Made by a program: the position numbers and the translations under genes. The notes below the pieces were generated by a model. It worked only from the letters and a program-made list of their open reading frames with translations. It searched no databases and had not been told where the DNA came from. A DNA stretch of 32,000 nt from Candidatus Saccharimonadota bacterium. GTDB taxonomy: Archaea; Nanobdellota; Nanobdellia; Pacearchaeales; GW2011-AR1. Where the stretch lies: contig JAFCEL010000001.1 of NCBI GenBank assembly GCA_017609205.1, forward strand, positions 330,001-362,000, given 5' to 3'. Numbering within the stretch: the stretch's first letter is position 1; the number at the start of each line of letters is the position of its first letter. Shown here one piece after another: positions 15,233 to 32,000 of the stretch.

Positions 15233-15233
15233 G

Positions 15234-16155: not shown

Positions 16156-16545
16156 ATGAAAAATAAAAGAGGGGATTTTGTTTTTGGCTATATTGTTACT
16201 ATTGCTGTTACTATAATCTTTTTTGTTATTTGTTTTGTTTTTTTATCAAGGGCATCAAGTGGGGCTGCAGTTTATGAGCAGGCATATTCAAAACAAATCG
16301 CTTTGATTATTGATAATGCAAGACCAAACACTATTTTTGAAATAGATTTTAGTGAAGGTATTGAATATCTTGAAAAAGAAAGAAAAAAGACACTAAGTAA
16401 TTCTGAAAAAAATTCTCTTGTTAAGATAGAAAATAATGAGGTAATTGTATCCCTCTCACAAGAAGGTTATTCCTCTGTTTTTTTTAGTGATTATGACGTT
16501 AGTTCCTCTTTTAATGAAAATAAACTTGTTTTGGTTGTAACATAA
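16156..16545 (+). CDS. Prepilin-like protein (129 aa)
   Basis: MKNKRG|DFVFGYIVTIAVTIIFFVICFVFL followed by a small soluble domain. Confidence 0.65.
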   Translation: MKNKRGDFVFGYIVTIAVTIIFFVICFVFLSRASSGAAVYEQAYSKQIALIIDNARPNTIFEIDFSEGIEYLEKERKKTLSNSEKNSLVKIENNEVIVSLSQEGYSSVFFSDYDVSSSFNENKLVLVVT

Positions 16546-16546
16546 A

Positions 16547-17577: not shown

Positions 17578-17578
17578 G

Positions 17579-18043
17579 ATGAAATCAAAAAATAATGCAG
17601 GAGTGATTGATGTTGTTGTAGTTGTTATGCTTTTTTTCGCATTAGTAGTTTCTTCTTTATTTGTTTTTTCAATGAGTTTTTCAAAGGCAAAAGTGAAAAT
17701 TTATGATTATCAGTTTATTGACGGTTTTTATGCAAAAGAGAAAATTGCAAAATATTATATTTTAGATGCAGGTCAAAAAGCAAAAAAGAAGATAAAAACT
17801 TTTTCTGATAAAGATGCTGTGAGAATTAATTTTATTTCTTATTTTAAGACTATTTTTTCTAACTATTCTTTTGATGAAGATTATTTAATCGAGCTTCAGA
17901 ATTCTGTGGAAAAAGATAATTTTGAGGTCGTTGTTGACGACGAGAAAATAATTATCAATGTTTATATGGAAATAAGTGGTTCGACAAGGAGTTTGAAAAT
18001 TATTTATCGTCCTGTGATTATAGAAGAATTTTATCTAGATTAA
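17579..18043 (+). CDS. Prepilin-like protein (154 aa)
   Basis: ATG at 17579 gives MKSKNNAG|VIDVVVVVMLFFALVVSSLFVF, 1 nt after the upstream stop. The track's alternative (non-ATG) start at 17540 would overlap the upstream gene by 38 nt. Confidence 0.6.
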   Translation: MKSKNNAGVIDVVVVVMLFFALVVSSLFVFSMSFSKAKVKIYDYQFIDGFYAKEKIAKYYILDAGQKAKKKIKTFSDKDAVRINFISYFKTIFSNYSFDEDYLIELQNSVEKDNFEVVVDDEKIIINVYMEISGSTRSLKIIYRPVIIEEFYLD

Positions 18044-18057
18044 AAACATTTATAAAT
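18042..18057 (+). promoter_or_regulatory. BRE/TATA-like promoter element of the Cys-rich prepilin-like gene (aaaaacatttataaat)
   Basis: Same 16-mer as at 27896-27911, ending about 21 nt upstream of ATG 18078. It lies in the only spacer over 30 nt inside the pilin gene string. Confidence 0.5.
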
Positions 18058-18077
18058 CTTATCTAATTAATAGAGAT

Positions 18078-18737
18078 ATGATAATAAAAAGGTGTGATAA
18101 ACATGGAGAAACTCAAGCATGGATTATTGGAATTATTCTTGCGATTGTTATTGGGGGATTAATATTATTTTTTGCTTCTAATGCATTCAGTAAAGTTGAG
18201 GGAGTTATAAATAAAGCTGATTTGGATATAGGGTTGATTTCACAAAAGTGTGATATTCAAATTGATATTTCAAAAGGAGAGGCTTATTGTGCTGAAAAGA
18301 TTCCTATTGGAGAAAGTAACAATTACATCACCTGCCCATATGCTAAGAAAAAGTTTGGCGTTACAACGGAGAGAGATATGCCTGAATGTGATATTGATGA
18401 GGGAGCAAAGGCTGTTTGTAGGAAATTGCTTGCAGAAGATAGCACAATTAAACCTGAGAAAATTTATGTTAATGAAAAACCTTGTTATAAGGCAGGGGGA
18501 ACAATAGGAAAGGATCATTGGGGGATTAATAGAGGAAGCTTTTGTGATGGGAATGCGATTGCTTGTGATAAATTGAGTTTATCAAATGACCCTCAGAAAG
18601 CAAAAAATGAGTGCGAATCCCAAAAAGGATGCGAATATAAAGAGAGTAAATGTGTTGGGACAGTCACTGCTTGTATAACTTTTGATGAATCACCCGAATG
18701 CGAATCCCAAAAAGGATGCTCTTGGATTGAAGTATAA
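18078..18737 (+). CDS. Cys-rich prepilin-like protein (219 aa)
   Basis: MIIKRCDKHG|ETQAWIIGIILAIVIGGLILFF, then a soluble region with about 15 Cys (hand count). It includes a duplicated ECESQKGC-x-[YW] unit. TATA-like box at 18049-18056. Confidence 0.65.
   Translation: MIIKRCDKHGETQAWIIGIILAIVIGGLILFFASNAFSKVEGVINKADLDIGLISQKCDIQIDISKGEAYCAEKIPIGESNNYITCPYAKKKFGVTTERDMPECDIDEGAKAVCRKLLAEDSTIKPEKIYVNEKPCYKAGGTIGKDHWGINRGSFCDGNAIACDKLSLSNDPQKAKNECESQKGCEYKESKCVGTVTACITFDESPECESQKGCSWIEV
18612..18719 (+). repeat. Intragenic 87-nt-period direct repeat (tgcgaatcccaaaaaggatgc x2)
   Basis: A 21-nt perfect repeat at 18612-18632 and 18699-18719 encoding CESQKGC twice within the 18078-18737 ORF. Confidence 0.85.
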
Positions 18738-18767
18738 ATATTTAAATTCTAATAAGTTTAATTTTAT

Positions 18768-18884
18768 ATGGCTCGTGGGGATGCTGAGCGACGGAATAAA
18801 GCAAAGAACAAAAGAAAAGAAAAGAAAAAACACCCTTATAGAAAAGGTGGTAAATATCGCTCTACAGGTTTAAAGCAGAAGTAA
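18768..18884 (+). CDS. Very basic 38-aa ORF, not in ORF track
   Basis: MARGDAERRNKAKNKRKEKKKHPYRKGGKYRSTGLKQK. TATA-like atatttaaat at 18738-18747 lies about 21 nt upstream of the ATG. Coding status is uncertain. Confidence 0.3.
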   Translation: MARGDAERRNKAKNKRKEKKKHPYRKGGKYRSTGLKQK

Positions 18885-18914
18885 TTTTATAAAGTTATCT
18901 TGTTTTTTTTATGA

Positions 18915-19739
18915 ATGTATAATGTGATTTTTTTGAGTGTTTTGACTATCTGTTGGATGATTGTTGCGAGTATTCAGGATATTAGGAAAAGAGAAATTGC
19001 TAATTGGCTTAATTTTTCTCTTATTATCTTTGCTCTTGGTTTTAGGTTTTTTTATTCTTCTTTTACTCATAATTTTGGGTTTTTTTATCAAGGGTTAATT
19101 GGATTAGGGATTTTTTTTGTTATTGGAAATATTTTTTATTATGGAAAGGTCTTTGCTGGGGGTGATGGAAAATTAATGGTTGCTCTCGGAGCAGTTCTTC
19201 CTTTTTCTGATAATTTTTTAACAAATATATCTGTTTTTATTGCTTTTATTTTTATTTTTTTAACAATTGGGGGGTTGTATGGTCTAGTCTGGAGTTTTGT
19301 TTTGGGAATTAAGAATTTTAAAAAATTAGAAAAAGAGTTTATTATCCAATTCAAGAAAAATAGAAAAGTTATTTTTTTAGTTTTAATTCCTGTATTCTCA
19401 ATGTTTTTGATATCTAGTCTAGTCTGGAGTTTGTTTTTTTATTTTGCTATATTAATCCTTGTTTTTGCTATTTTGTTTTTGTATGCAAGAAGTATAGAGG
19501 AAGTTTGCATGGTTAAAAAGATCTCAGTAGATGATTTAACAGAAGGAGACTGGCTTTATCGAACTGTTAGGGTTGGAAGGAAAGTTGTGAAGTCTAAGTG
19601 GGAAGGTGTTAATAAAGAGGAAATTAAATTGATAAGAAAATACCATAATAGGGTTAAGGTAAAATATGGAATCCCTTTTGCTCCGGTTTTTTTGATTAGT
19701 TTTCTGTTTTTGGTCTCTTTTTGGTTTGTGGTATTTTAA
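18915..19739 (+). CDS. A24-family prepilin/preflagellin peptidase (FlaK/PibD/EppA-like)
   Basis: Polytopic. First catalytic Asp context ASIQDIRKREI in TM1 and second Asp in a GxGD-type motif (FAGGDGKLMV). Extra soluble segment VDDLTEGDWLYRTVRVGRKVV before the last helix. Confidence 0.85.
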   Translation: MYNVIFLSVLTICWMIVASIQDIRKREIANWLNFSLIIFALGFRFFYSSFTHNFGFFYQGLIGLGIFFVIGNIFYYGKVFAGGDGKLMVALGAVLPFSDNFLTNISVFIAFIFIFLTIGGLYGLVWSFVLGIKNFKKLEKEFIIQFKKNRKVIFLVLIPVFSMFLISSLVWSLFFYFAILILVFAILFLYARSIEEVCMVKKISVDDLTEGDWLYRTVRVGRKVVKSKWEGVNKEEIKLIRKYHNRVKVKYGIPFAPVFLISFLFLVSFWFVVF

Positions 19740-19740
19740 T

Positions 19741-20349
19741 TTAAGGGATCCTTGGATTAATCCAAATGTCTTTTGCACTAATTTGTTTTATTGATGATTT
19801 TCCTTTTTTTTCAGTTAATTTTTTTTGGAGTTTTTTTAATTCTTCTTGTTCTGCAGATTTTCTTGGAGAATTTATATCTTCTTCTTTGTAAATCGGAAGG
19901 ATGTTAATGATTTCATGGCCTAGAATATTCTGGGTTGATATTTCAACTTCTTTTGGTTTTAGCTTTTCTTGTATTTTTTCCTTAACTTTTTTAGCTAAGA
20001 CAAAAATTTCCTCTGAAAATTCTTTTCTTGAGGATAAATGCTTTTTAGGAACTATTAGGGTATGTCCTTTTGAAATAGGGTTTATCTCTAATATAGCAAC
20101 TGCTTCTTCATTCTCGTCTATTTTATAGGAGGGAGTGTCTCTAGAGATAATTGAACAAAAGATACATTTTTGTCGAGAGGTATCTCGATTTTTTATTAAG
20201 CCGTTTTGTATTACAAATTCCTCAAGTTTTTCATTATTCATTTCTTTGAGTTTAGTTATTGCCTCTTCTTTTTTTTCTTCAGGAAATGTAGAATTAATTT
20301 GTTGAATTAATTTTTTTTTGATTTCTTTAATTTGTTCCTGTGTTAACAT
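19741..20349 (-). CDS. HIT-superfamily-like protein with a degenerate histidine triad
   Basis: CIFCSIISRD..., ILEINPISKGHTLIVPKKH match the HIT fold. Where H-x-H-x-H-x-x is expected the sequence reads GHEIINILP. About 60-aa K/E-rich N-terminal extension and a K-rich C-terminal tail. Confidence 0.65.
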   Translation of the reverse strand: MLTQEQIKEIKKKLIQQINSTFPEEKKEEAITKLKEMNNEKLEEFVIQNGLIKNRDTSRQKCIFCSIISRDTPSYKIDENEEAVAILEINPISKGHTLIVPKKHLSSRKEFSEEIFVLAKKVKEKIQEKLKPKEVEISTQNILGHEIINILPIYKEEDINSPRKSAEQEELKKLQKKLTEKKGKSSIKQISAKDIWINPRIP

Positions 20350-20408
20350 TAAATAAAGATGCTCTTTTCTATAAAAACTTTTATATATCTTTTAGTCTTG
20401 TTTTTTTA

Positions 20409-20666
20409 ATGAAAAAGATTATTGGATTGGTTCTTATTGTTGTGGGGTTTATTTTATTATTAGCTAATTTCAGTTTTATTGGGGAAAATCTTTCTAAGTT
20501 TATTCCTTTTATTAAAATTTTTCCAAAGAATTATATTCTCGGAGCAGGAGTTGTTCTTGTTTTGCTTGGATTGTTTTTTATGAAAAAGAATAATATCCCT
20601 GGTAAGAATTCTTTGGTCCCAATTTTCGAGGGTAAGAAAATTATTGGATATCAGAAAAGAAAATAA
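20409..20666 (+). CDS. Small two-helix membrane protein
   Basis: ATG 20409 gives MKKIIGLVLIVVGFILLLANF... The track's earlier (non-ATG) start at 20340 would overlap the divergent HIT gene's start. TATA-like ttttatatat about 21 nt upstream of 20409. Confidence 0.5.
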   Translation: MKKIIGLVLIVVGFILLLANFSFIGENLSKFIPFIKIFPKNYILGAGVVLVLLGLFFMKKNNIPGKNSLVPIFEGKKIIGYQKRK

Positions 20667-21416
20667 TTAGTTTTTTCTTATTGCTTTTAATTTTCTCTGA
20701 AGCCTGCGGATCATTTTTCTATATTGATGTAAGGATATAACATTTTTATCTAGGTCTTCCTTTGTTTGTATGATTTGCCTTCTAATATCTGTTTCAAATT
20801 TTTCTTTGTTTTGATGGCCTAATTGTTTCATTTCTTGGTTAATTATGGCTCTTCTAATTGTTCCGTCGAATAAAAGAAAGAAGAAAGCAAGAATCCCTGT
20901 GATAAGATATATCCATGCAAGGTTTCCTAATTCTGGGTATCTCATCTTCCATAATCCTAGGAATATAATCACAAAAAATATCCACGAGATTTTTCTTATT
21001 ATTGATGATTCAAATGATTGTGTAAAAATGAAGAATATTATCAGCGGGACTATTGCAGAAAGGGCTACCCCAAGGATGCTGTATGGAAGTAAAATGTTTT
21101 CTATTATTTGCCTATCTGATAGGAATCTTGTTGCAAGTAATGAAACTGCAAAAGCAATTATCATAAGGATCTTTGGGTCGCTTCCGAATAATTCTGTCTT
21201 GGATAGAGTCACTTTTATTAATGAGACAATTATTATAAATAACAAGATTTTTTCAAAGAGAATACCACTTTCACCTCCCAGGAAAGGAGCAATTAAAATT
21301 CTTGAAGCATCCTGGACTCCTTGGACTGCTTGTTCGAGCGTGTTTCCTAGATTATATGCAGAAATAAAATTTATGAATGTAAGTGTAATGACAAATATTA
21401 AAAATATCTTCTTCAT
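20667..21416 (-). CDS. Signal-peptide-bearing polytopic membrane protein, paralogue family member 1
   Basis: N-terminal signal-like MKKIFLIFVITLTFINFISA, blocks ILLPYSILGVALSAIVPLIIFFI, IRKISWIFFVIIFLGLW and FDGTIRR, and a basic coiled C-tail. All are shared with 21454-22251. Confidence 0.75.
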   Translation of the reverse strand: MKKIFLIFVITLTFINFISAYNLGNTLEQAVQGVQDASRILIAPFLGGESGILFEKILLFIIIVSLIKVTLSKTELFGSDPKILMIIAFAVSLLATRFLSDRQIIENILLPYSILGVALSAIVPLIIFFIFTQSFESSIIRKISWIFFVIIFLGLWKMRYPELGNLAWIYLITGILAFFFLLFDGTIRRAIINQEMKQLGHQNKEKFETDIRRQIIQTKEDLDKNVISLHQYRKMIRRLQRKLKAIRKN

Positions 21417-21453
21417 GGTTATCTGAAATTAAAGAAGTTTTTAAAATTTAGGT

Positions 21454-22251
21454 TTATTTGCTGAATCTTGCTATTCTCTTTTTGTATTCTTTTTCTCTTT
21501 TCTTAGCTTCTTTTTGAGATATAACGTCCTCTTGAATTAACTCTGGGAGCTTTGCTAGTTTTTGTTTATAGAAATCAATAGCATTCCTTTTTGTTTGGAC
21601 CCCTACTTTTTCTAGTTCCATTTTCAAGAAGAATTTTTGGATTGTTCCGTCGAACCATGCTATTAAAAATGCCAGTAGTGCTGTTATAGGGTAGATAAAT
21701 CCTGCTTTTGAATTTTGTGCAAGCAATTCAGGTCTTCTTGAAATCCATAGACCAATAAATACAACCGAGAAAAATATCCATGCAATTCTTCTAATTGTTT
21801 TATTTTTTGGTCCTGAAAATCCTTTGTTAATTATAATAAACCAAAGAATAAAGGGAATTCCTGCTGAGAGTACAATTCCCATTACAGAATATGGAAGGAT
21901 GATTGTTTGGATAATCGCTTTTGAACCGAGCCATCTTATTGCGAGGAGGGATGTAGAAATTGCAATTAACCAGTGAACGCCTTCATGTTCACTGATAAAA
22001 TCAATCTGCTCTAGGGATTTCCATATTATGGAGATAATGATTATAAAAAATAAGATCTTTGCAAATAAAAGTTCTCCTGAAATATTGTCTTTTCCTCCAA
22101 ATAAAAATCCTGCAAGAGGTTTTAAGACTCTATTAAAGATTTCTGAAGAGTATTCTGTTGCATCTGTAATTAAATCTGCTGAAATAAAATTCATTAGAAA
22201 GAGGAATAAAGTAAATGTTGTTAAACTTAATCCAGTTACTTTTTTATTCAT
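21454..22251 (-). CDS. Signal-peptide-bearing polytopic membrane protein, paralogue family member 2
   Basis: Blocks IILPYSVMGIVLSAGIPFILWFI, IRRIAWIFFSVVFIGLW, FDGTIQK and a basic C-tail (KEAKKREKEYKKRIARFSK). Clearly homologous to 20667-21416. Confidence 0.75.
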   Translation of the reverse strand: MNKKVTGLSLTTFTLFLFLMNFISADLITDATEYSSEIFNRVLKPLAGFLFGGKDNISGELLFAKILFFIIIISIIWKSLEQIDFISEHEGVHWLIAISTSLLAIRWLGSKAIIQTIILPYSVMGIVLSAGIPFILWFIIINKGFSGPKNKTIRRIAWIFFSVVFIGLWISRRPELLAQNSKAGFIYPITALLAFLIAWFDGTIQKFFLKMELEKVGVQTKRNAIDFYKQKLAKLPELIQEDVISQKEAKKREKEYKKRIARFSK

Positions 22252-22345
22252 TTTTTATAATGGATAAATTCTTTTTAAATATTCTGTTTTGTAAATTGCA
22301 TTTTATTTTAGAAATATTTAAAAATAAAAAAAGCATGACTAACCT

Positions 22346-23062
22346 ATGAAAAAGAGTGTAATAGGCTTATTTATTATTGGTTTGTTATTTGTTGGTCTAA
22401 TAATTGGTTCTATTGGTATTACGAGTGCTAGTCAATTTTCTGAGCCAGTCGGTGTGGTTAAATCTCTTTGGGATGCTCTTTTTGGAGGGTTGTTTGAGAG
22501 TGGAAGCTTTAATTTACATGGCAGTAAGATTGAGATATCAAGAATTCTTTTGATGTTTTTGGTTGTTCTTATGATTTATTCTGTCTCAGATTTTCTGCCT
22601 TTTTTCCCTCAAGATAAGGATTATCTTAGATGGCTTTTTGCAGGTGTGATTGCTGTTCTTTCATTCTTATTTGTTGATGGAGAAGATATCAGATTAATAC
22701 TTACTAACTACGAAGTATTAGGAGTTATGTTGACCTCTATTATTCCTCTGGCAATTATTTTAGCATTTACCTTTAAAATGCATGAACGCAATAAGAAATA
22801 TGCTAATATAATTAATACTCCTCTCCTTATTGGTTTTGCTATTTATACTCTTTTCAAATGGGCAACTTTTGAAGGTAGTGTTTTAAGAAATGTTTATCTT
22901 ATTACGCTAGTGATTGTTGGGCTTTTGTTTTTATTTCAGAAAAAAATTTTCAAATGGGTTGAAAAAGAAAAAATAGAGGGAGAGATAGATGAATTTGAAG
23001 GTCAGGTTAAAAGACAGGATGCTAAGAGAAAAATAGAATCAGAGTCACTCAAACATTCATAA
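22346..23062 (+). CDS. Signal-peptide-bearing polytopic membrane protein, paralogue family member 3
   Basis: MKKSVIGLFIIGLLFVGLIIGSIGITSA signal. Block ILTNYEVLGVMLTSIIPLAIILAF aligns with the I-L-P-Y-S block of members 1 and 2. Charged C-tail. Confidence 0.7.
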   Translation: MKKSVIGLFIIGLLFVGLIIGSIGITSASQFSEPVGVVKSLWDALFGGLFESGSFNLHGSKIEISRILLMFLVVLMIYSVSDFLPFFPQDKDYLRWLFAGVIAVLSFLFVDGEDIRLILTNYEVLGVMLTSIIPLAIILAFTFKMHERNKKYANIINTPLLIGFAIYTLFKWATFEGSVLRNVYLITLVIVGLLFLFQKKIFKWVEKEKIEGEIDEFEGQVKRQDAKRKIESESLKHS

Positions 23063-23106
23063 TCATTAATCCTAAATCTTAAAAACTCTTTTTGTTTTAG
23101 TTTTTT

Positions 23107-23796
23107 ATGTTTCGAAAAGCTGGTGTGTTTTTTTTATTATTGCTTTTATTTTGCAATTTTGTTTTAGCCTTGGATTCAGATTCTTTGCAAAAGAAAATAA
23201 GAGATGTTGAGGATAAATATGAACAAGCAAAGGAATTTACAGAAGAAGATAAATGGGATTATCTTGGGGAGAGTTGGAAGGAGGTTTTGTTAAAGAATAG
23301 GTTTTTTTCTGCAATAGATTCTTTCTTTAGAGAATTAAATCCTGTTTTTGTTTTTTTATTTGGGGAGGATTATAATTTTTCCTTAACTCTCTTTTTTGTT
23401 ATTCTCTTTTGGGTTTTTTTATTAAGTGTAATTTTCTTTTTGATAAGGGACTATTTTGGTGTCTTTGATAAAGCATGGATTGCGTTTTTAGTTTCTGTAA
23501 TTGTTTCATCTTTAATTGCTCATTCCGGGGTGTATAGGAAGATTGCTGAGAATACATTTAAGTTTTTATTCTTTAAGGGAGGTTTTTTTGATTATGTTTT
23601 TGTTATTTTGTTTTTATTAGTTCTTTTTTTAATTTGGGATTTAATTAGAGGCTTTGGTAAAAGGATTAAGGCAGAAAGAGAACAAATTGATAAGGAACAA
23701 GCAAAGCAAGATAGATATATTCTTCATAGAATTGTTAAGATTCTTTCAAGATCGCTTACGAGTGAAGATAAAAAGATTAAATATGTTTTTTATTGA
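23107..23796 (+). CDS. Signal-peptide-bearing membrane protein with similar architecture (divergent, possible family member 4)
   Basis: MFRKAGVFFLLLLLFCNFVLA signal, acidic ectodomain, hydrophobic helices and a basic C-tail (KRIKAEREQIDKEQAKQDRY). Similar in architecture; sequence similarity to members 1-3 is weak. Confidence 0.6.
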   Translation: MFRKAGVFFLLLLLFCNFVLALDSDSLQKKIRDVEDKYEQAKEFTEEDKWDYLGESWKEVLLKNRFFSAIDSFFRELNPVFVFLFGEDYNFSLTLFFVILFWVFLLSVIFFLIRDYFGVFDKAWIAFLVSVIVSSLIAHSGVYRKIAENTFKFLFFKGGFFDYVFVILFLLVLFLIWDLIRGFGKRIKAEREQIDKEQAKQDRYILHRIVKILSRSLTSEDKKIKYVFY

Positions 23797-23805
23797 TTAG
23801 CTTCT

Positions 23806-24081
23806 TTATCCAAAAGCCCTTCGCATATCAATAACTTCAACAGAACTAACGTCTTCAATCTCTTTTAGTGAATTTTCAATAGGTTCAAGCTCTCCCTCAT
23901 TTTCGTCTTGCTCAAATCCTATGATTAAAGCTTTTAGTCCAAAAGCAATCGGTTGTTCTTCAAACATAGGGTGTTTTCCTTTGTTGTTTTCAATTATCTT
24001 TTTTGCCTTTTCTTTTATCTTTTCTAAATTTGTTTCAGGTGATGAAGGCATTAATTTCATTTTTATTAGTGTAATTCCCAT
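23806..24081 (-). CDS. Archaeal translation elongation factor 1-beta (aEF-1beta)
   Basis: 91 aa. MGITLIKMKLMPSSPETNLEKIK..., PIAFGLKALII and VSSVEVIDMRRAF match the conserved aEF-1beta pattern. Confidence 0.85.
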   Translation of the reverse strand: MGITLIKMKLMPSSPETNLEKIKEKAKKIIENNKGKHPMFEEQPIAFGLKALIIGFEQDENEGELEPIENSLKEIEDVSSVEVIDMRRAFG

Positions 24082-24199
24082 TTGTTTTTTAATGAATTGT
24101 CTTTTTAAAATTTGTCTTTGTTTGTTTTAATTGCTATAATAATTTATTTTAATTCTTTTGGACAACAATACTTATAAATCATCTAGGATTTTTTTCTTT

Positions 24200-25141
24200 A
24201 TGGAGGGGAATTATGAGAGGATTGTAAGAAAAATTGCGTCTTCTTCAGGATTAGGTGAGGATGAAATTGAGAGAAGGGTTGAGGCAAAAAGAGCAAAACT
24301 TGCTGGATTAATTAGTAGGGAAGGCGCTGCACAAGTTATTGCTGCTGAATTAGGAATTAATTTTGATAATGAAAGATTAAAGATAAATGAACTTCTTCCT
24401 GGAATGAGAAGAGTTAATGTCGTTGGGAAGATAATTAATCTTTCTCCTGTAAGAACTTTTACTACTAAAAATGGGGAGGAAAGCAAGGTTTGTAACTTTC
24501 TTCTTGCTGATGATACTTCTAATGTGAGGGTTGTTTTATGGGATACTAATCATATTGAGTTAATAGAAAAAGGAGAGATTTCTGAGGGCAGTATGGTTGA
24601 GTTGTCTAATGGGACTATGAGAGATACAGAAATTCACTTAGGAAGTTTTTCTGAATTAAAGAAAAGCGAGGAGTCAATCGAGGATGTTAAAACAGAAAGA
24701 GTGGTTGCAGAAAAACAAATTTTTGAATTTAAAAACGGACAGAGTGTTTCTGTTAGAGCATTTATTGTTCAATCATTTGAACCTAGATTTTTTTATGTTT
24801 GCCCTGAATGCAGAAAAAAAGTTGTTTCTGGTTCAGAAGGCTTTGTTTGTGCAGAACATGGAAAAATAAATGCTGAGAAAAGAGCATTGATTAATTTTGT
24901 GATTGATGATGGAACCGAGACGATTCGTTCTGTTGTTTTTAGTGATGCTCTTTCTTCCTTGGGGATTACAGAATTAGAAAACCCTGAATTGCTTATTCAA
25001 CAGAGAGAAGATCTTTTGGGGAAGGAAATGGTATTTGTCGGGAATGTTAGAAATAATAAATTTTTTAACAATAGCGAATTGATTGTTGATGATATTAAGG
25101 AAGTTAATCTGGATGAATTAATTAATAGATTGGAGGATTAA
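24200..25141 (+). CDS. RPA-type single-stranded DNA-binding protein (replication factor A)
   Basis: OB-fold block VNVVGKIINLSPVRTFTTKNGEESKVCNFLLADDTSNVRVVLWD, a second OB with an embedded zinc ribbon (CPECRKKV...CAEHGK). ATG 24200 is preferred over TTG 24158 because ttataaat at 24172-24179 lies about 21 nt upstream of it. Confidence 0.8.
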   Translation: MEGNYERIVRKIASSSGLGEDEIERRVEAKRAKLAGLISREGAAQVIAAELGINFDNERLKINELLPGMRRVNVVGKIINLSPVRTFTTKNGEESKVCNFLLADDTSNVRVVLWDTNHIELIEKGEISEGSMVELSNGTMRDTEIHLGSFSELKKSEESIEDVKTERVVAEKQIFEFKNGQSVSVRAFIVQSFEPRFFYVCPECRKKVVSGSEGFVCAEHGKINAEKRALINFVIDDGTETIRSVVFSDALSSLGITELENPELLIQQREDLLGKEMVFVGNVRNNKFFNNSELIVDDIKEVNLDELINRLED

Positions 25142-25537
25142 ATGGTTTCTAAATTATTGAAGTTTGCTTCTTTTTTTATTTTTCCGTTTGTAATTTTATT
25201 CCTTGCTTTCTTTTTCTTCTTTTTTGGAATTTATTCTCTTTTTCCCTGGCTGGATAATCTCTTACATTTTATGGGGGGAATCTCTATTGCTTATACTTCT
25301 ATTTTGTTTCTTAGGGAATTTGAAGAAGAAATCGAGATCAGGAATAAGGTTATTTTTATAATTATTATTGCCTCAATTGTTAGTTTGGCTTCTGTACTTT
25401 GGGAGTTGTGGGAATTTACTTTTGGAAAAGTTTTTTCTGAGTCTTTTTTTGTACAGGAGGGTTTAGAAGACACTATTCTTGATTTATTTTTTGGGGTACT
25501 TGGTGGTGTTTGTGGAGGGGTTTTCAGTAAGATTTAA
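25142..25537 (+). CDS. Small integral membrane protein
   Basis: 131 aa with four hydrophobic segments. The ATG abuts the RPA stop. No family recognised. Confidence 0.5.
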   Translation: MVSKLLKFASFFIFPFVILFLAFFFFFFGIYSLFPWLDNLLHFMGGISIAYTSILFLREFEEEIEIRNKVIFIIIIASIVSLASVLWELWEFTFGKVFSESFFVQEGLEDTILDLFFGVLGGVCGGVFSKI

Positions 25538-25560
25538 ATTAAGGTTTGATTTTACAATCC

Positions 25561-26016
25561 ATGTTAATACGAACTCATCTTGCAATAACTTTATTTTTTG
25601 CGTTAATCTTTATTGATTTAATTAATCATAAAACAATTTTTCTTTTAGTTGCTTTGGTTGCAACTTTTATTCCAGATGTTGATTCGCGATTTTCTACACT
25701 TGGGAGAAGAAAGACAGCGAGGATTTTGCAATTTTTTACAAAGCATAGGGGATTTATTCATAGCTTTACTTTTCTTTTCTTAATTGTTCTATTCTTTATT
25801 TCATTCTTTCCTATTCTTGCTTTTCCTTTTTTTCTTGGCTATGGCTTGCACCTTTTTCTAGATGCCTTTACTCCTGAAGGAATTAAACCTTTTTATCCTT
25901 GGAAGAAAAAATCAACTGGTTGGATAAGGACGGGTAGTAGAAGTGAGATTCTTCTTTTTGTAGTCTTTATTGTGGGGGATTTGTTCTTGGCTTTTTTGAA
26001 GATTTTTCTTTCGTAA
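25561..26016 (+). CDS. YdjM/DUF457-like membrane-bound metal-dependent hydrolase
   Basis: THLAIT..., IPDVDS, HRGFIHSF and GYGLHLFLDAFTPEGIKPFYPW motifs. ATG 25561 is preferred over TTG 25546. Confidence 0.65.
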   Translation: MLIRTHLAITLFFALIFIDLINHKTIFLLVALVATFIPDVDSRFSTLGRRKTARILQFFTKHRGFIHSFTFLFLIVLFFISFFPILAFPFFLGYGLHLFLDAFTPEGIKPFYPWKKKSTGWIRTGSRSEILLFVVFIVGDLFLAFLKIFLS

Positions 26017-26047
26017 ATTATATAAATGAAGTGGTGCTGGTTTTATA

Positions 26048-26266
26048 ATGGAAGAAGCAAAATATTATCTTCCAGAGATTCTTACAAGACTCATCAGAGA
26101 GGGTTTTGAGGTGAGAAACCGTTATGAAACAGCTAAAAGAGGGAAAGGTGTTTTGACTTTATGCGAAGCAGAAGAGGATTTTATTTATTGGAAGGAGAGG
26201 ATGCACAAAGTCTATGAAATGCTGGGCTGGGATTCTAAATTAGTTGATTTTTTGGTTAATAATTGA
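26048..26266 (+). CDS. Hypothetical small protein
   Basis: 72-aa ORF with balanced composition and no motif recognised. Confidence 0.4.
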   Translation: MEEAKYYLPEILTRLIREGFEVRNRYETAKRGKGVLTLCEAEEDFIYWKERMHKVYEMLGWDSKLVDFLVNN

Positions 26267-26318
26267 TTATTGTTTCCGAGACTATAAATTCTTATAAAGT
26301 CAGGAGATTTTGAAGTTT

Positions 26319-27341
26319 ATGGTTGCAAAAAAGGAAGCTGAGGAGATTAAAAAGGCTATTTCTGGAGAAGAAAAAAGTATGAAGAAGAAAGGAAATAAAG
26401 AACCCCAATTAACTGATTTGCCAGGAATTGGTCCTGCTGTTGCGGCTAAATTAGAAAATGCAGGTGTTTTTGATATGATGGGTCTGGCTGTGATGAGTCC
26501 TTCTGTTTTGAGTGATGCTGCAGGTGTAAGTTCTGCTGTTGCGAGAAAAGCAATTCAGGCAGCGAGGGATATGCTTGATTTGGGATTTACTGATGGGATG
26601 GAATTCGCGAAGAAAAGAGAGAATATTAATTATATTACAACTGGAAGTAAAAATTTAAATGAACTTCTTGGGGGAAGAGGGGTTGAAAGTAGATCCATCA
26701 CAGAAGCATTTGGTGCTTATGGTTCAGGTAAGACTCAACTTGGTTTAACACTTTCTGTTAATGTTCAACTTCCTGTGGAAAAAGGCGGTGTTTCTGGAAA
26801 ATGTGTTTTTATAGATACAGAGGGAACTTTTAGGCCCCAGAGAATAAGACAAATTGCAGAGGGTATTGGGGCAAATCCTGAGAAGGTTTTAAAGAATATC
26901 TTTGTCGCAAGAGCATTTAATTCAGACCATCAGATTTTGTTATTAGAGAAAGTTGGAGAGATGATAAGGAATGGGGAGCCAATTAAATTGATGGTTGTTG
27001 ATTCTTTAACTGCGCATTTTAGAGCAGAATTTTCAGGACGCGGGCAACTCGCAGACCGGCAACAGAAATTAAATCGTTATATGCATGATTTAATGAAACT
27101 TGCAGAAACGCATAATCTTGCAGTTTATGTTACTAATCAAGTTATGGCAAATCCTGCACAATTGTTTGGTGATCCAACAACTGCAATAGGTGGAAACATT
27201 GTTGGACACGCTTCGACGTATAGAATATATCTTCGAAGAGGAAAACAAGGTTCAAGAGTCGCAAAATTAATTGATTCGCCAAATCTTCCTGACAATGAAG
27301 CTATATTTTGGGTTACAGATAGTGGTATTGTTGATGGGTGA
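26319..27341 (+). CDS. radA: DNA repair and recombination protein RadA
   Basis: N-terminal HhH (LTDLPGIGPAVAAKLENAGV), Walker A GAYGSGKTQ, Walker B LMVVDSLTAHFR and NQV...GGNIVGHAS. ATG 26319 follows the TATA-like ctataaat at 26282-26289. The track starts at TTG 26310. Confidence 0.95.
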   Translation: MVAKKEAEEIKKAISGEEKSMKKKGNKEPQLTDLPGIGPAVAAKLENAGVFDMMGLAVMSPSVLSDAAGVSSAVARKAIQAARDMLDLGFTDGMEFAKKRENINYITTGSKNLNELLGGRGVESRSITEAFGAYGSGKTQLGLTLSVNVQLPVEKGGVSGKCVFIDTEGTFRPQRIRQIAEGIGANPEKVLKNIFVARAFNSDHQILLLEKVGEMIRNGEPIKLMVVDSLTAHFRAEFSGRGQLADRQQKLNRYMHDLMKLAETHNLAVYVTNQVMANPAQLFGDPTTAIGGNIVGHASTYRIYLRRGKQGSRVAKLIDSPNLPDNEAIFWVTDSGIVDG

Positions 27342-27357
27342 TTTTCTTGAAACACAA

Positions 27358-27846
27358 TTACATGAAAAAATCCTGGATTGTTTTATAGGAGTGTAATTCT
27401 TTTTCATTGAACCATAACTTTATCTCATGTTTTGCATCTTTTTCATCGCTTGAAGCATGGATTATATTTTTGACAGGTATGTTTTTTGCGTCAGCATAAG
27501 CAAAACTTACATGAGCGAAATCTCCCCTAATTGTTCCTGGTGGTGCAGATTTTGGTTCTGTTCCTCCGACGATTTTTCGCACATTTTCAATGGCATTAAC
27601 TCCTTCTAGGGCTATTGCAATAACAGGCCCTTCTATTATATAGTTAAGTAATTGCTCTCTTACTTTTTCCCCTCTTCTTTCTGCAATATCTTCGGTGTAG
27701 TGTTTCTTAGCAAACTCTTTATCTACCCAGACTTGTTTCATACCGACGATTTTTAAACCAGCATCTTCAAATCTAGATATAATCTTTCCAACTAAGTGCC
27801 TTTGGACTCCTTCGGGTTTGATTAAAACTAATGTTCTTTCTTGCAT
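27358..27846 (-). CDS. ndk: Nucleoside diphosphate kinase
   Basis: ERTLVLIKPEGVQRHLVGKIISRFE, GTIRGDF and NIIHASSD (active-site His) motifs. Confidence 0.9.
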   Translation of the reverse strand: MQERTLVLIKPEGVQRHLVGKIISRFEDAGLKIVGMKQVWVDKEFAKKHYTEDIAERRGEKVREQLLNYIIEGPVIAIALEGVNAIENVRKIVGGTEPKSAPPGTIRGDFAHVSFAYADAKNIPVKNIIHASSDEKDAKHEIKLWFNEKELHSYKTIQDFFM

Positions 27847-27895
27847 AATTGATTTTGTTCTGTTTTCTTTATAAAATTTGTTATTTTTTCCTTAG

Positions 27896-27911
27896 AAAAA
27901 CATTTATAAAT
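27896..27911 (+). promoter_or_regulatory. BRE/TATA-like promoter element of the giant ORF (aaaaacatttataaat)
   Basis: A purine-rich stretch followed by tttataaa, about 29 nt upstream of GTG 27939. An identical 16-mer occurs at 18042-18057. Confidence 0.5.
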
Positions 27912-27938
27912 GGGTTTTTATTAAATAAAATAATAAAA

Positions 27939-30900
27939 GTGGTGATAAGAAATAAAGAATTAGCTTTATTGGTTTTTGTTTTATTCTCTTTTCTCGCTTT
28001 TGTTATAAATTCTGTTTCTGCTGAATGGGTGGATTGTTGGCAATACGGACCAATGGATGCAAATGATCCTAATGTTTGTTCTTCTAATGGTTGTATTGTA
28101 ACCTCTTTAACAGGAAGTGTGGATAGTTCTTATGGTTATACTGGGGAAGTTGTTCAGGATTTGTGGTGTGGAACTGATATGTCTTATTGTTGTCTTCCAA
28201 AAGAATGTTGGCTTTGGGATGAGACGAATCAAACTCTTTGTGAAGAGAATGATGGTACATTAAACTGTACTTGGAATGGTTTTCCTTCAACTATGTATCT
28301 TCCAAATGGTTCTGAATATACAATGAATGGAACTTGTAATATGGATTGGGATTCTATGGGAGAAGATATCTGGGGAGGTGTTTCTGATGGTTGTTGGCAG
28401 TATGATGGAGATAAGCAGCAGTGTATAAGTAATTATCAGAAGTGTGAATGGAAACCGAATGATGCAAATCAGAATCCTTGGTGTTGGATAAAAAATTTAC
28501 AAGATGCACAAGCTCAGAATCCTCTTGCTGATTCTGATGATATTGGTTGTTGTGATATGAAGGGTTGCTGGAGTTATGATGGAAATGAGACAAGATGTCT
28601 GACAGACCCAAGCTTTGCAGGACTTTGCACTTTTGTGAATAAAACGGATGATCCTTGGTGTCCAGATCCTGTTGGCTGTTGCTATACCAAAAGCTGTTCA
28701 GAAGTGGGAAGTAATCAGACACTTTGTAATTTACTTAAAAAACAAATGATGATGCCTTGTGAATTTAATGCTACTGGAGATGGTACATGCGGTGATTTTG
28801 GTGGAAGTGGTGGGGGTTTTGCATTTTTTAATGATACTGATTCATGTATGCAGCAAGGAGGATGGTATGATATTAATGGAAATTGCATGATGCCTAATAT
28901 GACTGATGTTGGTGGTGCTTTTATGTTTGGAGGCGAGGCACATTGTTGGTTTGCAGATAATCAGCCATTTGTTTGTGGGAATATAACTGGCTGTGTTTAT
29001 TGTGTTGCTGGAAGCGGACCAAATGGGGTTGAAAATTGTACTGATGGAGATGGTAATGGTTATTCAGATAATATCTGCTGCGGTAAGCAAGTTGGATTTT
29101 GTGAGGGCCATAATTTTTGGGACAATGAAATGAATTATTCAAATTCTGATGACTCAACAAATCTTAATTGCACTCATATTAAAATTAAAAGCGCGTGCAA
29201 ATACGGACCACTTCCAAATTGTATATGGAGTAATTCAACTGCTTTAATAGGTGAATATTGTAATCCTGGAACAAGTACAGAAGCAAAAGATGCCCCTCCT
29301 GTCCCTTTTTGTGAGCATCCTGATGCAAAGAATAATGAGACAATGTGTAATAATCTGGCTATTAATTATATGATGCCTTGTAAGTGGTATGAGAATTATA
29401 CAAATGTTAATGGAGTTATGGTAGTTAATTGTTCTTTTAATCCTAATGCTGTTTTTGGTTCTGAATCCAATGCTGAAAAAGATTTCTTGGTTATTAATTC
29501 AGAATATTCCTGTATTGCTGCAGGAGGAACCTGGCAGACGTCTTATTATATTGAGAATAATATCTTGAAGCAGGATTCTTGGTGTGAAAAAGGTGCGTTA
29601 TTTGATCCTCTTGCAGGACAGGCCGCAGGAAATAAAGGAAATTGTGATATGGATTGTTGGGCTTGCGAATTCAGGTATAATGGAAGTAGGTGGGATAATG
29701 CAACCCAGGCAGAGAGTGCCTGTGTTGGTTCTGCATTGGGTTATTGTCGTTGGACAAATGATACAAATGCTCCAAATCAGCAAGGATGGTGTGATTATCC
29801 TCAAGAAATGACTTATGGGGCAGGAGATTGCAATATTAATTGTAAAGATTGTGATTTGAAGTTAGATGCATATGATGCTTGTATTAATAGTCAGGCAGAA
29901 TGTAAATGGGTAAATAATACTAACTCGAATGGAGAGTTTTTATCAACGGGTTATTGTGTATCCAAAGATAAGAAAACTTGTTTAGATGATTGTTTTTCTT
30001 GTTATAGTGAGAATGATTGTTTTGCTTCAACATTAGACTGCTTATGGGATACAACAGCTAAATTATGTAAGCCAAATAGCTTTTCAGGAGAAATTTGTTT
30101 TGATGCAGTAGATAATGATAATGATGGGTTTACTGATTGTGCAGATCCTGATTGTTCTTTTGATAATGCATGTGGAGGAAATAATTTTGCTGATTGTATG
30201 TCCATAACAAATGCCACGGTGTGTAATGCAACTGTTGCATTTGGAAATCTGAATTGTACATGGTATAATTTTACTTGGGAACCTGAAGGACATTGTGGAA
30301 TGCCTGGAGAAGATTGTTGGCAGTATGACGGAGACCCTGCAACATGTGGAGCAACACCTGGTTGCACAAACGAGTCTTCATTTGGAGGGTCAAGTGGTTT
30401 TTGTGATATTAATACTACACAAATGGATAATGCTCAGTGCTGGCAATATGGAGATAATGAAACTTATTGTTCTGCTCAGGCAAATTGTGGTTGGGTTAAT
30501 GATTCATGGTGTACTGAGCATCCAGAGGATTCATGGTGTGCTACTGGACCAGGTGGATGGTGTGATTATAAACTATTTGCTGATTGTCGTGCACTTGATG
30601 GAAACCAAACAGGGTGTGGGTTGAATCCCAATTGTACATGGCATCAAGACGAATGGATGGATACTGGTTTTTGTGATCCTGCTTGTTTTGATTGGACATT
30701 GAATTCAACAACTTGTGTACAAGGAAATTTATCAGGAATTTGTGAGTGGAGGGATTCTTCTGATATGTGCATGCCTTCGACATTTGATATTATGGCAGGA
30801 GGTTCTGGAGGTAAAATTGGTTGTCCTCAATATGATGGAAATATGACTGGATGTCAACTAAAGAATATTACATGTGTTTGGGTTAATGATTCAAATGTGG

Positions 30901-32000
30901 ATAATAGAGTCACTACTAATGTTGCTGGGCAAAATATTTCTGGTTGGTGTAATGATAAGGGAACTTATGAAATGGTTGGGGATATGAAAGGAGAACCAAT
31001 AATGTTGGGAATGGATTCGGGAAATATGATGGGTGGTGCAGAATCAGGTGTTGTTGGATGGGCTGATATAAAGGGATTTGGATTAAGAGTAACAGACAAG
31101 TCTTATGGTTTTGGTGTTGGTATTTATAATCTGACTGATGGCGCTGTTTGTAATGGATACCAAATGAAGTTCGCTGAGCTGGGGGTTGATGGGGCTACTG
31201 GTGCAGGGCAGAATATTACAAAGATGAGGTGGTATTTGGATACTGATGGAGATTCTTCTTTTGGAAGCCATTGCGGAGCTACTGACTCAAATGGTGCTTC
31301 CTGTGATTCGAGCTCGTCCAATTTATGCAATTATGAATTTTATATAGATTATATGGTGAGAAACAATACAAATACAGGGAATATAGAAACGACAAAGAAA
31401 TTATATTATTGTGTTATGAATGGAAGTACAGGATGGCAATGGGCACCTACAAATGTTTTTGTTACAGATGATAAGAAATTTACATGCTGGGATTCTGGTA
31501 TGGGGGCTCTTCTTGTAAGCATTGAAAAAGAAGCTTTTGAAAATTTTGCTTTATTTGATATTACACAACCAATGAGGATTTTTGTGGTAAGCTTTGATGG
31601 ACCTGGAAGTGGAGATGGTGCAGATGAATTAGGACCTTCATATTATACTCCTGGAACAATTGATTTTGGATTTGTAGATTGCTCTGACCCGAATACAAAA
31701 GACCCTAAATGTAAAAATTTCCAGAAATTTGGAACACAGGTTTTTGAGGATTGCAAGAATGGATATGACGATGATTCAGATGGTTATGCTGATTGTGCTG
31801 ATGCTAAATGCACTTTTACTCCTGTTTGTGCGTCAGGAACAGCTTTTAACTGGACATCTCAGTGCTCGTCCGACTATAAAGCTCCTGTTGTTGTATTTAC
31901 AAATGTAGATAAAATGGCTGATTCTGCAATTATTCAATATGATACTGATGAGCCAGCAAATGGAAGTTTGATTTGGTATAATACAAGTTCGACATGTGAG
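27939..32000 (+). CDS. Giant secreted Cys/Trp/Asn-rich repeat surface protein (putative glycosylated adhesin or S-layer-like), 3' partial; absent from the ORF track
   Basis: I translated frame 3 codon by codon from 27939 to 32000: 1,354 codons with no stop, and the last codon ends exactly at the window edge. The frame opens at 27849 (TAA at 27846-27848). GTG 27939 (or 27942) gives MVIRNKELALLVFVLFSFLAFVINSVSA|EW, a textbook Sec signal peptide. The first in-frame ATG (28053) lies beyond it. TATA-like tttataaa at 27903-27910. Confidence 0.85.
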   Translation, partial: MVIRNKELALLVFVLFSFLAFVINSVSAEWVDCWQYGPMDANDPNVCSSNGCIVTSLTGSVDSSYGYTGEVVQDLWCGTDMSYCCLPKECWLWDETNQTLCEENDGTLNCTWNGFPSTMYLPNGSEYTMNGTCNMDWDSMGEDIWGGVSDGCWQYDGDKQQCISNYQKCEWKPNDANQNPWCWIKNLQDAQAQNPLADSDDIGCCDMKGCWSYDGNETRCLTDPSFAGLCTFVNKTDDPWCPDPVGCCYTKSCSEVGSNQTLCNLLKKQMMMPCEFNATGDGTCGDFGGSGGGFAFFNDTDSCMQQGGWYDINGNCMMPNMTDVGGAFMFGGEAHCWFADNQPFVCGNITGCVYCVAGSGPNGVENCTDGDGNGYSDNICCGKQVGFCEGHNFWDNEMNYSNSDDSTNLNCTHIKIKSACKYGPLPNCIWSNSTALIGEYCNPGTSTEAKDAPPVPFCEHPDAKNNETMCNNLAINYMMPCKWYENYTNVNGVMVVNCSFNPNAVFGSESNAEKDFLVINSEYSCIAAGGTWQTSYYIENNILKQDSWCEKGALFDPLAGQAAGNKGNCDMDCWACEFRYNGSRWDNATQAESACVGSALGYCRWTNDTNAPNQQGWCDYPQEMTYGAGDCNINCKDCDLKLDAYDACINSQAECKWVNNTNSNGEFLSTGYCVSKDKKTCLDDCFSCYSENDCFASTLDCLWDTTAKLCKPNSFSGEICFDAVDNDNDGFTDCADPDCSFDNACGGNNFADCMSITNATVCNATVAFGNLNCTWYNFTWEPEGHCGMPGEDCWQYDGDPATCGATPGCTNESSFGGSSGFCDINTTQMDNAQCWQYGDNETYCSAQANCGWVNDSWCTEHPEDSWCATGPGGWCDYKLFADCRALDGNQTGCGLNPNCTWHQDEWMDTGFCDPACFDWTLNSTTCVQGNLSGICEWRDSSDMCMPSTFDIMAGGSGGKIGCPQYDGNMTGCQLKNITCVWVNDSNVDNRVTTNVAGQNISGWCNDKGTYEMVGDMKGEPIMLGMDSGNMMGGAESGVVGWADIKGFGLRVTDKSYGFGVGIYNLTDGAVCNGYQMKFAELGVDGATGAGQNITKMRWYLDTDGDSSFGSHCGATDSNGASCDSSSSNLCNYEFYIDYMVRNNTNTGNIETTKKLYYCVMNGSTGWQWAPTNVFVTDDKKFTCWDSGMGALLVSIEKEAFENFALFDITQPMRIFVVSFDGPGSGDGADELGPSYYTPGTIDFGFVDCSDPNTKDPKCKNFQKFGTQVFEDCKNGYDDDSDGYADCADAKCTFTPVCASGTAFNWTSQCSSDYKAPVVVFTNVDKMADSAIIQYDTDEPANGSLIWYNTSSTCE

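Follow-up and report, generated by a model that had tools for sequence, protein, structure and literature searches.

A giant cysteine-rich gene of a Pacearchaeales archaeon encodes a predicted membrane-anchored surface glycoprotein conserved among DPANN archaea

Several archaeal surface-layer (S-layer) glycoproteins are anchored in the membrane by their C-terminus, among them csg of Halobacterium and Haloferax, the Methanosarcina MSTP protein MA0829 and the tetrabrachion of Staphylothermus. In the two-gene SlaA/SlaB system of the Sulfolobales, a large, acidic, N-glycosylated outer subunit with few cysteines is carried by a small stalk subunit with a single C-terminal membrane helix. For the DPANN archaea, NEQ300, Micr_00292 and MJ1_0160 (the last about 1,000 amino acids (aa) long), arrays of immunoglobulin (Ig)-like domains that are weakly related to each other, have been proposed as S-layer proteins, and no S-layer protein of this group has been determined experimentally (bioRxiv 10.1101/2023.10.27.564410). 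Here we describe a giant gene at the 3' end of a 32,000-nucleotide stretch of a Pacearchaeales genome (assembly GCA_017609205.1, contig JAFCEL010000001.1, positions 330,001 to 362,000, forward strand; hereafter the window). Its 1,811-residue product is, near certainly, a real membrane-anchored surface glycoprotein that is secreted, N-glycosylated and stapled by disulfides. From its sequence, its predicted structure and its relatives, it may be a main structural component of the envelope, a glycoprotein canopy raised on a stalk that serves as an S-layer-type coat subunit, a role to which we give a probability of roughly 45%.

Extent of the gene and layout of its product

Translation of frame 3 (+) from position 27,939 to the edge of the window yields 1,354 sense codons and zero stops, as a first-pass annotation made from the sequence had stated; the frame first opens at 27,849, immediately past a stop. 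The remaining five frames contain 46–179 stops over the same stretch, and the probability of such an open frame by chance, calculated from the local base composition, is about 1e-47. The part of the protein encoded in the window matches P0001, a database protein 1,811 aa long, at 100% identity. About 1.37 kb of the gene lies past the window edge, and the extension that had been suggested there was provided by P0001 and by contig L085 (assembly GCA_017608185.1), which is 99.69% identical to window positions 17,942–32,000 with zero gaps and contains the complete gene, including the stop and the C-terminal anchor. The mechanical list of open reading frames (ORFs) for the window leaves out any ORF running off the sequence edge, and over the giant gene it shows only four short ones (28354–28722, 30002–30367 and 30541–30783 on the minus strand, 30295–30624 on the plus strand). 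As already suspected from the lack of an in-window stop, the gene is missing from it because its frame runs off the window, a lesson in how such a list can hide the largest gene of a stretch. That list is what speaks for taking the frame as fortuitous, as a pseudogene or as an assembly chimera, with the short antisense ORFs as the real products. This alternative is already effectively refuted, not only by the stop counts and the chance estimate but also by more than 100 collinear full-length orthologues with invariant cysteines, by the independent assembly free of indels, by confident AlphaFold2 (AF2) models and by the listing rule itself, which explains the gap in the track.

The G+C content at third codon positions (GC3) of the gene is 0.224 and its effective number of codons (ENC) 39.2, the same as in the rest of the window, so that the higher G+C of this stretch reflects amino-acid composition. 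A recent horizontal acquisition was rejected on these native values, which are uninformative on expression in a genome this AT-rich. Like its orthologues in close relatives and in two more distant ones at 47–48% identity, the gene looks genuine, native and vertically inherited, in an archaeon of Woesearchaeales type.

Two adjacent GTG codons, at 27,939 and 27,942, are candidate starts; the NCBI product begins at the second, and the many homologues that begin with MV[IV]K favour the first. A putative TATA-like box (TTTATAAAT), located by the first-pass annotation about 29 nt upstream, ends 27 nt before GTG 27,939. It is preceded by a purine-rich stretch and lies in the 92-nt intergenic region between the giant gene and the divergently oriented NDK gene. 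The spacing from box to GTG suggests that the mRNA is leaderless or near-leaderless. The sole hydrophobic stretch of the window part of the protein, residues 5–25, falls in a predicted signal peptide, and its …SVSA↓EW site agrees with the conserved …[FV][VI]SA↓x..DCW ends of the signal peptides of homologues, in keeping with the peptide proposed earlier from its RNK n-region, hydrophobic core and SVSA↓E site.

Beyond the window, the C-terminal quarter first completes the FN3-like domain; further β-domains follow, which end at a conserved …VSLGF, and after them come a Ser/Gly linker, a stalk domain (about 100 aa), an acidic helix, a hydrophobic helix (residues 1748–1768) and finally a Lys/Arg-rich tail with KKKK at its end, the cytoplasmic tail of P0001 measuring about 40 residues. 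The N-terminal signal and the C-terminal helix are the only hydrophobic segments of the full protein, a layout common to most full-length homologues. Because this helix and the basic tail close the complete protein, the product is predicted to be a type I membrane protein. The earlier statement that there is no further hydrophobic helix holds within the window and not past it; likewise, the giant secreted extracellular protein first proposed stands as a secreted, Cys-rich, multi-domain surface protein, one that is attached to the membrane and not free outside the cell. It contains 55 N-x-S/T sequons, compared with 23.4 ± 4.1 in shuffles, and at 45 alignment columns the sequon recurs in half of the family or more; the isoelectric point of the mature ectodomain is 4.09. 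In silico, it has the traits of the S-layer class in being secreted, acidic and rich in N-sequons, and also in its membrane anchoring, through a C-terminal transmembrane helix in P0001 and L085 and through a separate anchor subunit in L084 and L001. A PGF motif or PGF-CTERM signal is absent from P0001 (NCBIfam, motif scan). The PGF-pre-PGF domain (TIGR04213), which is characteristic of surface glycoproteins in archaea, occurs in neither P0001 nor P0023; the distant members P0089 and P0094 have it, the Aenigmarchaeota members carrying it in place of the stalk module.

The window part of the protein contains exactly 108 cysteines (8.0%), the figure that the first-pass hand count had given as about 108 (about 8 percent), and G, D, N and W are abundant in it; the mature ectodomain as a whole has 114 cysteines, an even number. 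The AF2 model of residues 28–1010, with a mean predicted local distance difference test (pLDDT) score of 79 and a predicted template-modelling (pTM) score of 0.47, is a string of small units, in each of which a pair of short helices leads into one or two strands. What had been described as an N-terminal repeat region does consist of Cys-rich modules but is not tandem-repetitive, being a mosaic of several small disulfide module types. Self-BLAST found no internal repeats in the giant protein; they were brought out with a module hidden Markov model (HMM) and hhalign comparisons of family sub-alignments. One module type, the CW module, has the consensus C-W-x-Y-D-G-N-x-T-x-C-x4-8-C-x-W and seven clear copies by the module HMM, for which 0 of 50 shuffles gave a match above 5 bits. 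By hhalign, at least nine CW-type modules are mutually related at 90–98% probability, segment 257–333 is related to 457–560, and P0001 residues 561–625 are related at 97.4% to residues 626–676, these being two of three consecutive modules that each open with C-x3-C-x2-C; such hhalign and module scores are possibly inflated by the Cys-rich composition.

Compared by Foldseek with PDB and BFVD, the Cys-rich model had no match with an E-value under 0.8. Matches to HCV E2 and Pvs25 were noise, and kinship with viral glycoproteins, EGF domains or fusexins was rejected. Pfam returned nothing relevant for the window protein and five homologues; its matches on P0013 and P0028 (RIFIN, Kre9) were dismissed as low-complexity or lineage-specific inserts. 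PDB sequence searches, with the single sequence and with the family profile, matched only a 30-residue teneurin motif. With the exception of that motif, these searches leave standing the earlier view that no named family covers the region, and the roughly 950 residues, for which neither sequence nor model found a known fold, may hold small disulfide domains new to the structural repertoire.

The Asp-rich, Cys-flanked motif noticed in the first pass corresponds to NCBIfam NF033662, which scores 48.2 bits in the window protein (cut-off 41; E 6.6e-13) and 45.8 bits in P0001, in two stretches each (717–745 and 1269–1296 in P0001); NCBIfam found nothing else in the giant protein. The two acidic repeats align with each other at 98.4% (hhalign), and the first matches the C-rich domain of Teneurin-4 (7plp) with E-values of 0.005 and 0.0018 in the single-sequence and profile searches of the PDB. 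The likeness to teneurin and NF033662 lies in two copies of C-x-D-x-x-D-N-D-x-D-G-x-x-D-C-x-D-P-x-C; these account, however, for only about 60 of the 1,811 residues and are modules, not a family. The acidic motif alone is widespread in bacteria, among them Myxococcota and Polyangia (L041–L080, among the matches listed), whose surface proteins often carry it in many tandem copies. Sequence comparison points to a mobile extracellular module common to bacteria and animal teneurins.

These motifs bear on a group of other surface functions, in which the protein would be an extracellular metal or Ca2+ scaffold, a redox-active Cys-rich protein or a receptor signalling through its basic tail. The three C-x3-C-x2-C and two acidic Ca2+-type motifs, the near-complete invariance of the cysteines and the length of the cytoplasmic tail would suit such functions. 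We nevertheless consider them improbable, since P0001 has zero CxxCH haem motifs (motif scan of all 1,811 residues) and only 12 His, and AF2 appears to place the cysteines within the small, compact units that disulfide stapling typically gives. Moreover, the tail is variable in sequence and length and is absent from the canopy subunit of the split forms described below, and no signalling domain was found with Pfam or NCBIfam. The CxxCH and His counts also led us to reject a multihaem cytochrome or extracellular redox protein, and the presence of only 6 CxxC motifs a CxxC protein of the type of the variant-specific surface proteins (VSPs).

The half of the protein nearer the membrane is built differently. 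The AF2 model of P0001 residues 980–1745 (pLDDT 89, pTM 0.74) is entirely β-sandwich with a terminal helix. Its Foldseek matches are only generic arrays (Sas6/CBM74, FN3 tandems, complement MG domains, SiiE, and the FN3 domains of NCAM and contactin) at TM-scores of 0.1–0.2; the FN3 tandems 7y6e and 2vkx match with a probability of 0.97–1.0, a value that does not single out the part of the model aligned. No Pfam fn3 match was obtained in the window protein or in full-length members. AF2 and NF033662 agree with the domain order first proposed, in which Cys-rich modules are followed by a Cys-poor β-region, the Asp-rich motif and an FN3-like β-sandwich beginning near 31,890 (Table 1).

Table 1. 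Positions of the features described in the text, in window coordinates unless a contig is named
Feature	Position	Strand	Basis or remark
TATA-like box TTTATAAAT	27903–27911	+	Read from sequence; putative function from usual archaeal promoter geometry
Giant surface glycoprotein CDS, first 1,354 of 1,812 codons	27939–32000	+	Open frame, database identity, sister contig
Signal peptide (predicted), 28 codons: basic n-region RNK, hydrophobic core, VSA↓E	27939–28022	+	Hydrophobicity and homologue conservation
Disulfide-rich ectodomain, ~970 aa, 94 Cys, small helix-helix-strand modules of several types	28035–30950	+	Alignment, AF2, hhalign
CW module copy	28200–28274	+	Module HMM 26 bits
CW module copy	28386–28466	+	Module HMM 42.5 bits; hhalign
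CW module copy	28560–28646	+	Module HMM 42.6 bits; hhalign
Three consecutive modules each opening C-x3-C-x2-C (CDMDCWAC, CNINCKDC, CLDDCFSC)	29622–30089	+	Motif scan
Acidic double-disulfide repeat 1 (ICFDAVDNDNDGFTDCADPDCSFDNAC), probably Ca2+-binding (predicted)	30090–30176	+	NF033662 second stretch, 7plp match
CW module copy	30309–30377	+	Module HMM 31.7 bits
CW module copy	30432–30509	+	Module HMM 40.7 bits
CW module copy	30579–30656	+	Module HMM 41.7 bits
CW module copy, last ahead of Cys-poor region	30816–30896	+	Module HMM 50.6 bits
Cys-poor β-sandwich domain, ~220 aa, with conserved WYLDTDG loop	30999–31667	+	AF2, pLDDT ~90, all-β
Acidic double-disulfide repeat 2 (CKNGYDDDSDGYADCADAKCTFTPVC)	31746–31829	+	NF033662 best stretch, residues 1270–1297
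FN3-like β-sandwich start, cut by window edge	31890–32000	+	AF2 strands, model residues 338–438
T2SSE-family ATPase	8737–11025		Type IV filament locus
731-aa polytopic membrane protein	11040–13235		Type IV filament locus
Bacterial-type SLT lytic transglycosylase domain protein	13433–14194		Inside type IV filament locus
Several small pilin-like ORFs without Pfam match	16156–18737		Type IV filament locus
A24 prepilin peptidase	18915–19739		Closes type IV filament locus
Separate stalk/anchor gene	L084:11065–11727		Next ORF after …VSLGF-ending orthologue
VKOR-family gene (PF07884), CFYC motif and loop cysteines	L084:18943–19344	-	8 kb from orthologue
Separate anchor gene	L001:9031–9390		Next ORF after …VSLGF-ending orthologue

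The family, its two-gene form and its genomic context

A word-indexed search recovered 103 relatives, mostly of 1,550–1,800 aa, from sources labelled archaeon, Nanoarchaeota, Woesearchaeota, Aenigmarchaeota and Naiadarchaea; almost all are named "hypothetical protein" and none S-layer protein. An exhaustive HMMER search over 1.84 billion cluster representatives gave 216 matches at E ≤ 1e-3, 65 of them at E ≤ 1e-30; the strong matches are all large proteins or their fragments, and the weak tail matches the acidic motif only. By a scan of genome contigs, true relatives are present in at least about 40 species-level metagenome-assembled genomes (MAGs; L001–L040), most of them from Woese-, Pace- or Nanoarchaeota. 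Family members are also carried by MAGs labelled Methanosarcinales, Methanobacteriota or Hydrothermarchaeaceae (L015, L017, L025, L030, L033, L035–L038 and L040), which could mean that the labels are wrong, that DPANN contigs were binned into the wrong MAGs or that the family is more widely distributed. No paper describing the family was found in the literature, its database sequences being known only as hypothetical proteins.

In an alignment of 59 sequences nearly every cysteine is invariant, and most full-length members have a signal peptide, a C-terminal helix, a basic tail and 104–113 cysteines. Identity to the window protein is even, at 40–59%, over residues 150–1590, and drops to 21–34% in the first 150 residues and to 9–32% in the linker, stalk and anchor; across phyla it stays at 36%.

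About one fifth of the family (P0010, P0011, P0016, P0018, P0022 and others) ends exactly at …VSLGF and has no anchor. On contigs L084 and L001 the next ORF begins 1–2 nt past the stop of such an orthologue and encodes an anchor protein with its own hydrophobic, signal-peptide-like N-terminus, a poly-Gly linker, an acidic stretch, a transmembrane helix and a basic tail. The stalk domain is carried by the L084 anchor protein, which matches P0001 residues 1622–1706 (48% identity, E 1e-21) as well as the C-termini of about 40 fused members. Because the C-terminal stalk of P0001 is matched by this separate gene, the window gene is the fused version of a canopy-plus-anchor pair, related to it by gene fission or fusion.

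Outwards from the giant gene, the upstream neighbours are NDK (27358–27846, minus strand), RadA (26310–27341), a YdjM-family protein and a DUF2238 protein; an RPA-like OB-fold protein comes next, and beyond several genes that lack annotation stand a HIT protein and the A24 prepilin peptidase. The order A24 peptidase, HIT, RPA-like, YdjM, RadA, NDK, giant gene recurs at close relatives and at the two orthologues of 47–48% identity, and downstream of the orthologues stand the housekeeping genes for eIF2alpha, a Cdc45-like DHH protein, RtcB and ParA. At every locus examined the gene is present in a single copy, with no tandem paralogues.

An S-layer-type coat or a host-contact protein

The protein is most probably made and arranged as follows. 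The signal peptide would route the chain through Sec and be cleaved after SVSA. The C-terminal helix stays embedded in the membrane and leaves the Lys/Arg tail on the cytoplasmic side, a topology that the sequence indicates and the positive-inside rule backs. The acidic ectodomain, of about 186 kDa, would be heavily N-glycosylated, judging by the excess and conservation of its sequons; its 114 cysteines would be oxidised into about 57 disulfides, and its two teneurin-like acidic motifs would bind Ca2+. Outwards from the membrane, the acidic helix would be followed by the β-sandwich stalk domain, a Gly/Ser hinge, the β-sandwich/FN3-like block and finally the roughly 950 aa of disulfide-stapled modules, whose outermost 120 residues, the most variable ones of the ectodomain, would face the outside world, including any host.

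The role of a coat subunit is favoured because of the two-subunit variant, the type of anchor and the acidic, glycosylated ectodomain with its conserved glycan sites, and also because of the single copy per locus, the housekeeping context and the even conservation of the core. The two-gene form of the sublineage of L084 and L001 parallels SlaA/SlaB, with the window gene as its fused counterpart; sequence or fold similarity to that pair is nonetheless absent, and whereas SlaA is made of Ig-like β-domains, half of the canopy here is the region of disulfide modules. With csg, MSTP and tetrabrachion it shares the signal peptide, the acidic isoelectric point, the many N-glycosylation sites, a Ser/Thr/Gly-rich linker and the C-terminal membrane anchor, and the PGF-pre-PGF domain of its Aenigmarchaeota relatives is found in such proteins. 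It differs from them in lacking PGF-CTERM and DUF1608/MSTP/csg homology, in being 2–3 times larger, in its cysteine content of 6–8% and in being much more conserved across phyla. NEQ300, Micr_00292 and MJ1_0160 are likewise large secreted DPANN glycoproteins with β-sandwich domains, annotated as hypothetical; they are not reported to be Cys-rich, and the giant protein is set apart from them by description only. As a functional analogy, the VSPs of Giardia and the immobilisation antigens of ciliates combine a signal peptide, small Cys-rich modules, a C-terminal anchor and a short basic tail in a coat of the whole surface, but the giant protein has few CxxC motifs, no Pfam VSP match and a conserved single-copy gene in place of a large variant family. 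S-layer genes are among the top-expressed transcripts of Woesearchaeota in a report that does not identify the family concerned (PMC11606122).

Several points weigh against a coat. The evidence for it is drawn wholly from sequences, gene context and predicted structures. Similarity to the known S-layer families (DUF1608/MSTP, csg, SlaA) is absent in Pfam, NCBIfam and PDB sequence searches, and no S-layer structure is among the top 50 Foldseek matches of the β-rich model. S-layer proteins are usually poor in cysteine. They also usually diverge fast (bioRxiv 10.1101/2023.10.27.564410), in contrast to the cross-phylum identity found here. A structure-prediction survey described MSTP-like β-sandwich S-layer proteins in Nanoarchaeota and Aenigmatarchaeota (bioRxiv 10.1101/2024.05.28.596244); if an MSTP-like protein is present in these genomes, the giant protein would not be the lattice former. 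The family forms only about 65–110 clusters at 50% identity among the 1.84 billion representatives and may therefore not be universal in the clade. Finally, the stalk module is not confined to this family: in L081 and L003 it also forms the end of other large proteins encoded nearby. Because it occurs on these surface proteins and is replaced by PGF-pre-PGF in Aenigmarchaeota, it is probably a general surface-anchoring module and not one specific to S-layers.

The strong conservation across phyla, unusual for S-layer proteins, would suit a dedicated adhesin or contact receptor for attachment to a host. In that case, the protein would be a long membrane-anchored spike whose distal disulfide modules and Ca2+ motifs recognise the host surface (glycans or S-layer), with the β-block as a spacer or lectin. 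The part of the ectodomain that varies most is its membrane-distal tip, residues 28–150. Compared with the 99.7%-identical strain of L085, the gene carries 8 single-nucleotide polymorphisms, 3 synonymous and 5 non-synonymous, all five of the latter in codons 472–625 (window 29353–29812), the least confident part of the AF2 model; their clustering may hint at diversifying selection, small as the numbers are. The acidic motif resembles the C-rich domain through which teneurin, a protein of cell adhesion in eukaryotes, binds Ca2+, and this would fit the same role, as would the carbohydrate-binding and adhesion arrays (Sas6/CBM74, SiiE, NCAM, contactin FN3) among the matches of the β-region, these being, however, generic β-sandwich arrays with low TM-scores. 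So would the integrase and the other giant unannotated proteins that adjoin the orthologue P0004.

The lifestyle of the organism is pertinent as well, as this is a DPANN-type archaeon with a small, AT-rich genome, and the window holds a bacterial-type SLT transglycosylase within a type IV pilus locus. In Woese- and Pacearchaeota, SLT-type proteins have been remarked on as possibly indicating that these archaea live as episymbionts of bacteria (PMC8204110). The first-pass annotation had placed the giant gene next to this pilus locus and drawn on that position for a role in attachment; the locus (8737–19739) in fact ends 8.2 kb upstream, with at least 10 unrelated genes in between, so that the gene does not adjoin it. 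Pfam and NCBIfam revealed no domain recognisable as an adhesin, lectin, protease or toxin. Host-specific adhesins are usually variable, multi-copy and located in islands, whereas the giant gene is single-copy at the loci examined and has an evenly conserved core in a stable housekeeping context. SPEARE-type giant proteins of nanohaloarchaea unite serine protease, adhesion and restriction-endonuclease domains in one protein; as Pfam and NCBIfam found no such domains, this identity was rejected. Overall, a host-contact role is quite possible and stands close behind that of an S-layer-type coat, and the two are not mutually exclusive.

Other loci and meaning of the family

The orthologue P0004 (66% identity) lies in a different context, on contig L081 (1–9879 and 15505–19417). 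It is surrounded there by a phage-type integrase and by very large proteins of 1,865, 1,499, 637 and 545 aa without Pfam match, the latter two bearing the same C-terminal stalk module, and these surroundings look like a surface-protein island. In the window itself, a 449-aa ORF without Pfam match and with a Cys-rich C-terminus (45–1394, plus strand) has a GC3 of 0.349 and an ENC of 50, compared with 0.18–0.29 and 33–44 in the other window genes, and may be a foreign or a surface-protein gene. It is not explained by an RNA gene, the Rfam, rRNA and tRNA scans of the window being empty.

About 57 conserved disulfides would be unusual for a prokaryotic extracellular protein and would imply an active extracytoplasmic oxidation system, in archaea that are reported largely from anoxic or low-oxygen habitats. 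The VKOR-family gene near the L084 orthologue fits the idea that these archaea form disulfides outside the cytoplasm and is, by its sequence motifs, a candidate for the oxidase concerned; no VKOR homologue was seen within the window.

What is new here is an archaeal, C-terminally anchored surface glycoprotein with a large outer half of disulfide modules that lacks a known fold. More broadly, and more doubtfully than either role taken singly, it may represent an ancient surface protein of several DPANN phyla, passed on vertically at least in the Woesearchaeales-type lineages covered here, whose disulfide-knotted outer half of 950 residues is a new fold class, and which is either the first Cys-rich prokaryotic S-layer or a conserved host-contact apparatus of Woese-, Pace- and Aenigmarchaeota. 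If the latter were true, prokaryotes would have their own equivalent of the Cys-rich, Ca2+-dependent adhesion receptors of eukaryotes, for example the teneurins. The family is conserved, easily recognised and single-copy at the loci examined, and can be used as a target for antibodies, for fitting in cryo-electron tomography, for metaproteomics and for binding assays. Few uncultivated archaea are as widespread as Woesearchaeales and Pacearchaeales, and the giant protein, with the function that we infer for it, would offer a handle on their cell surface and on their contact with hosts.

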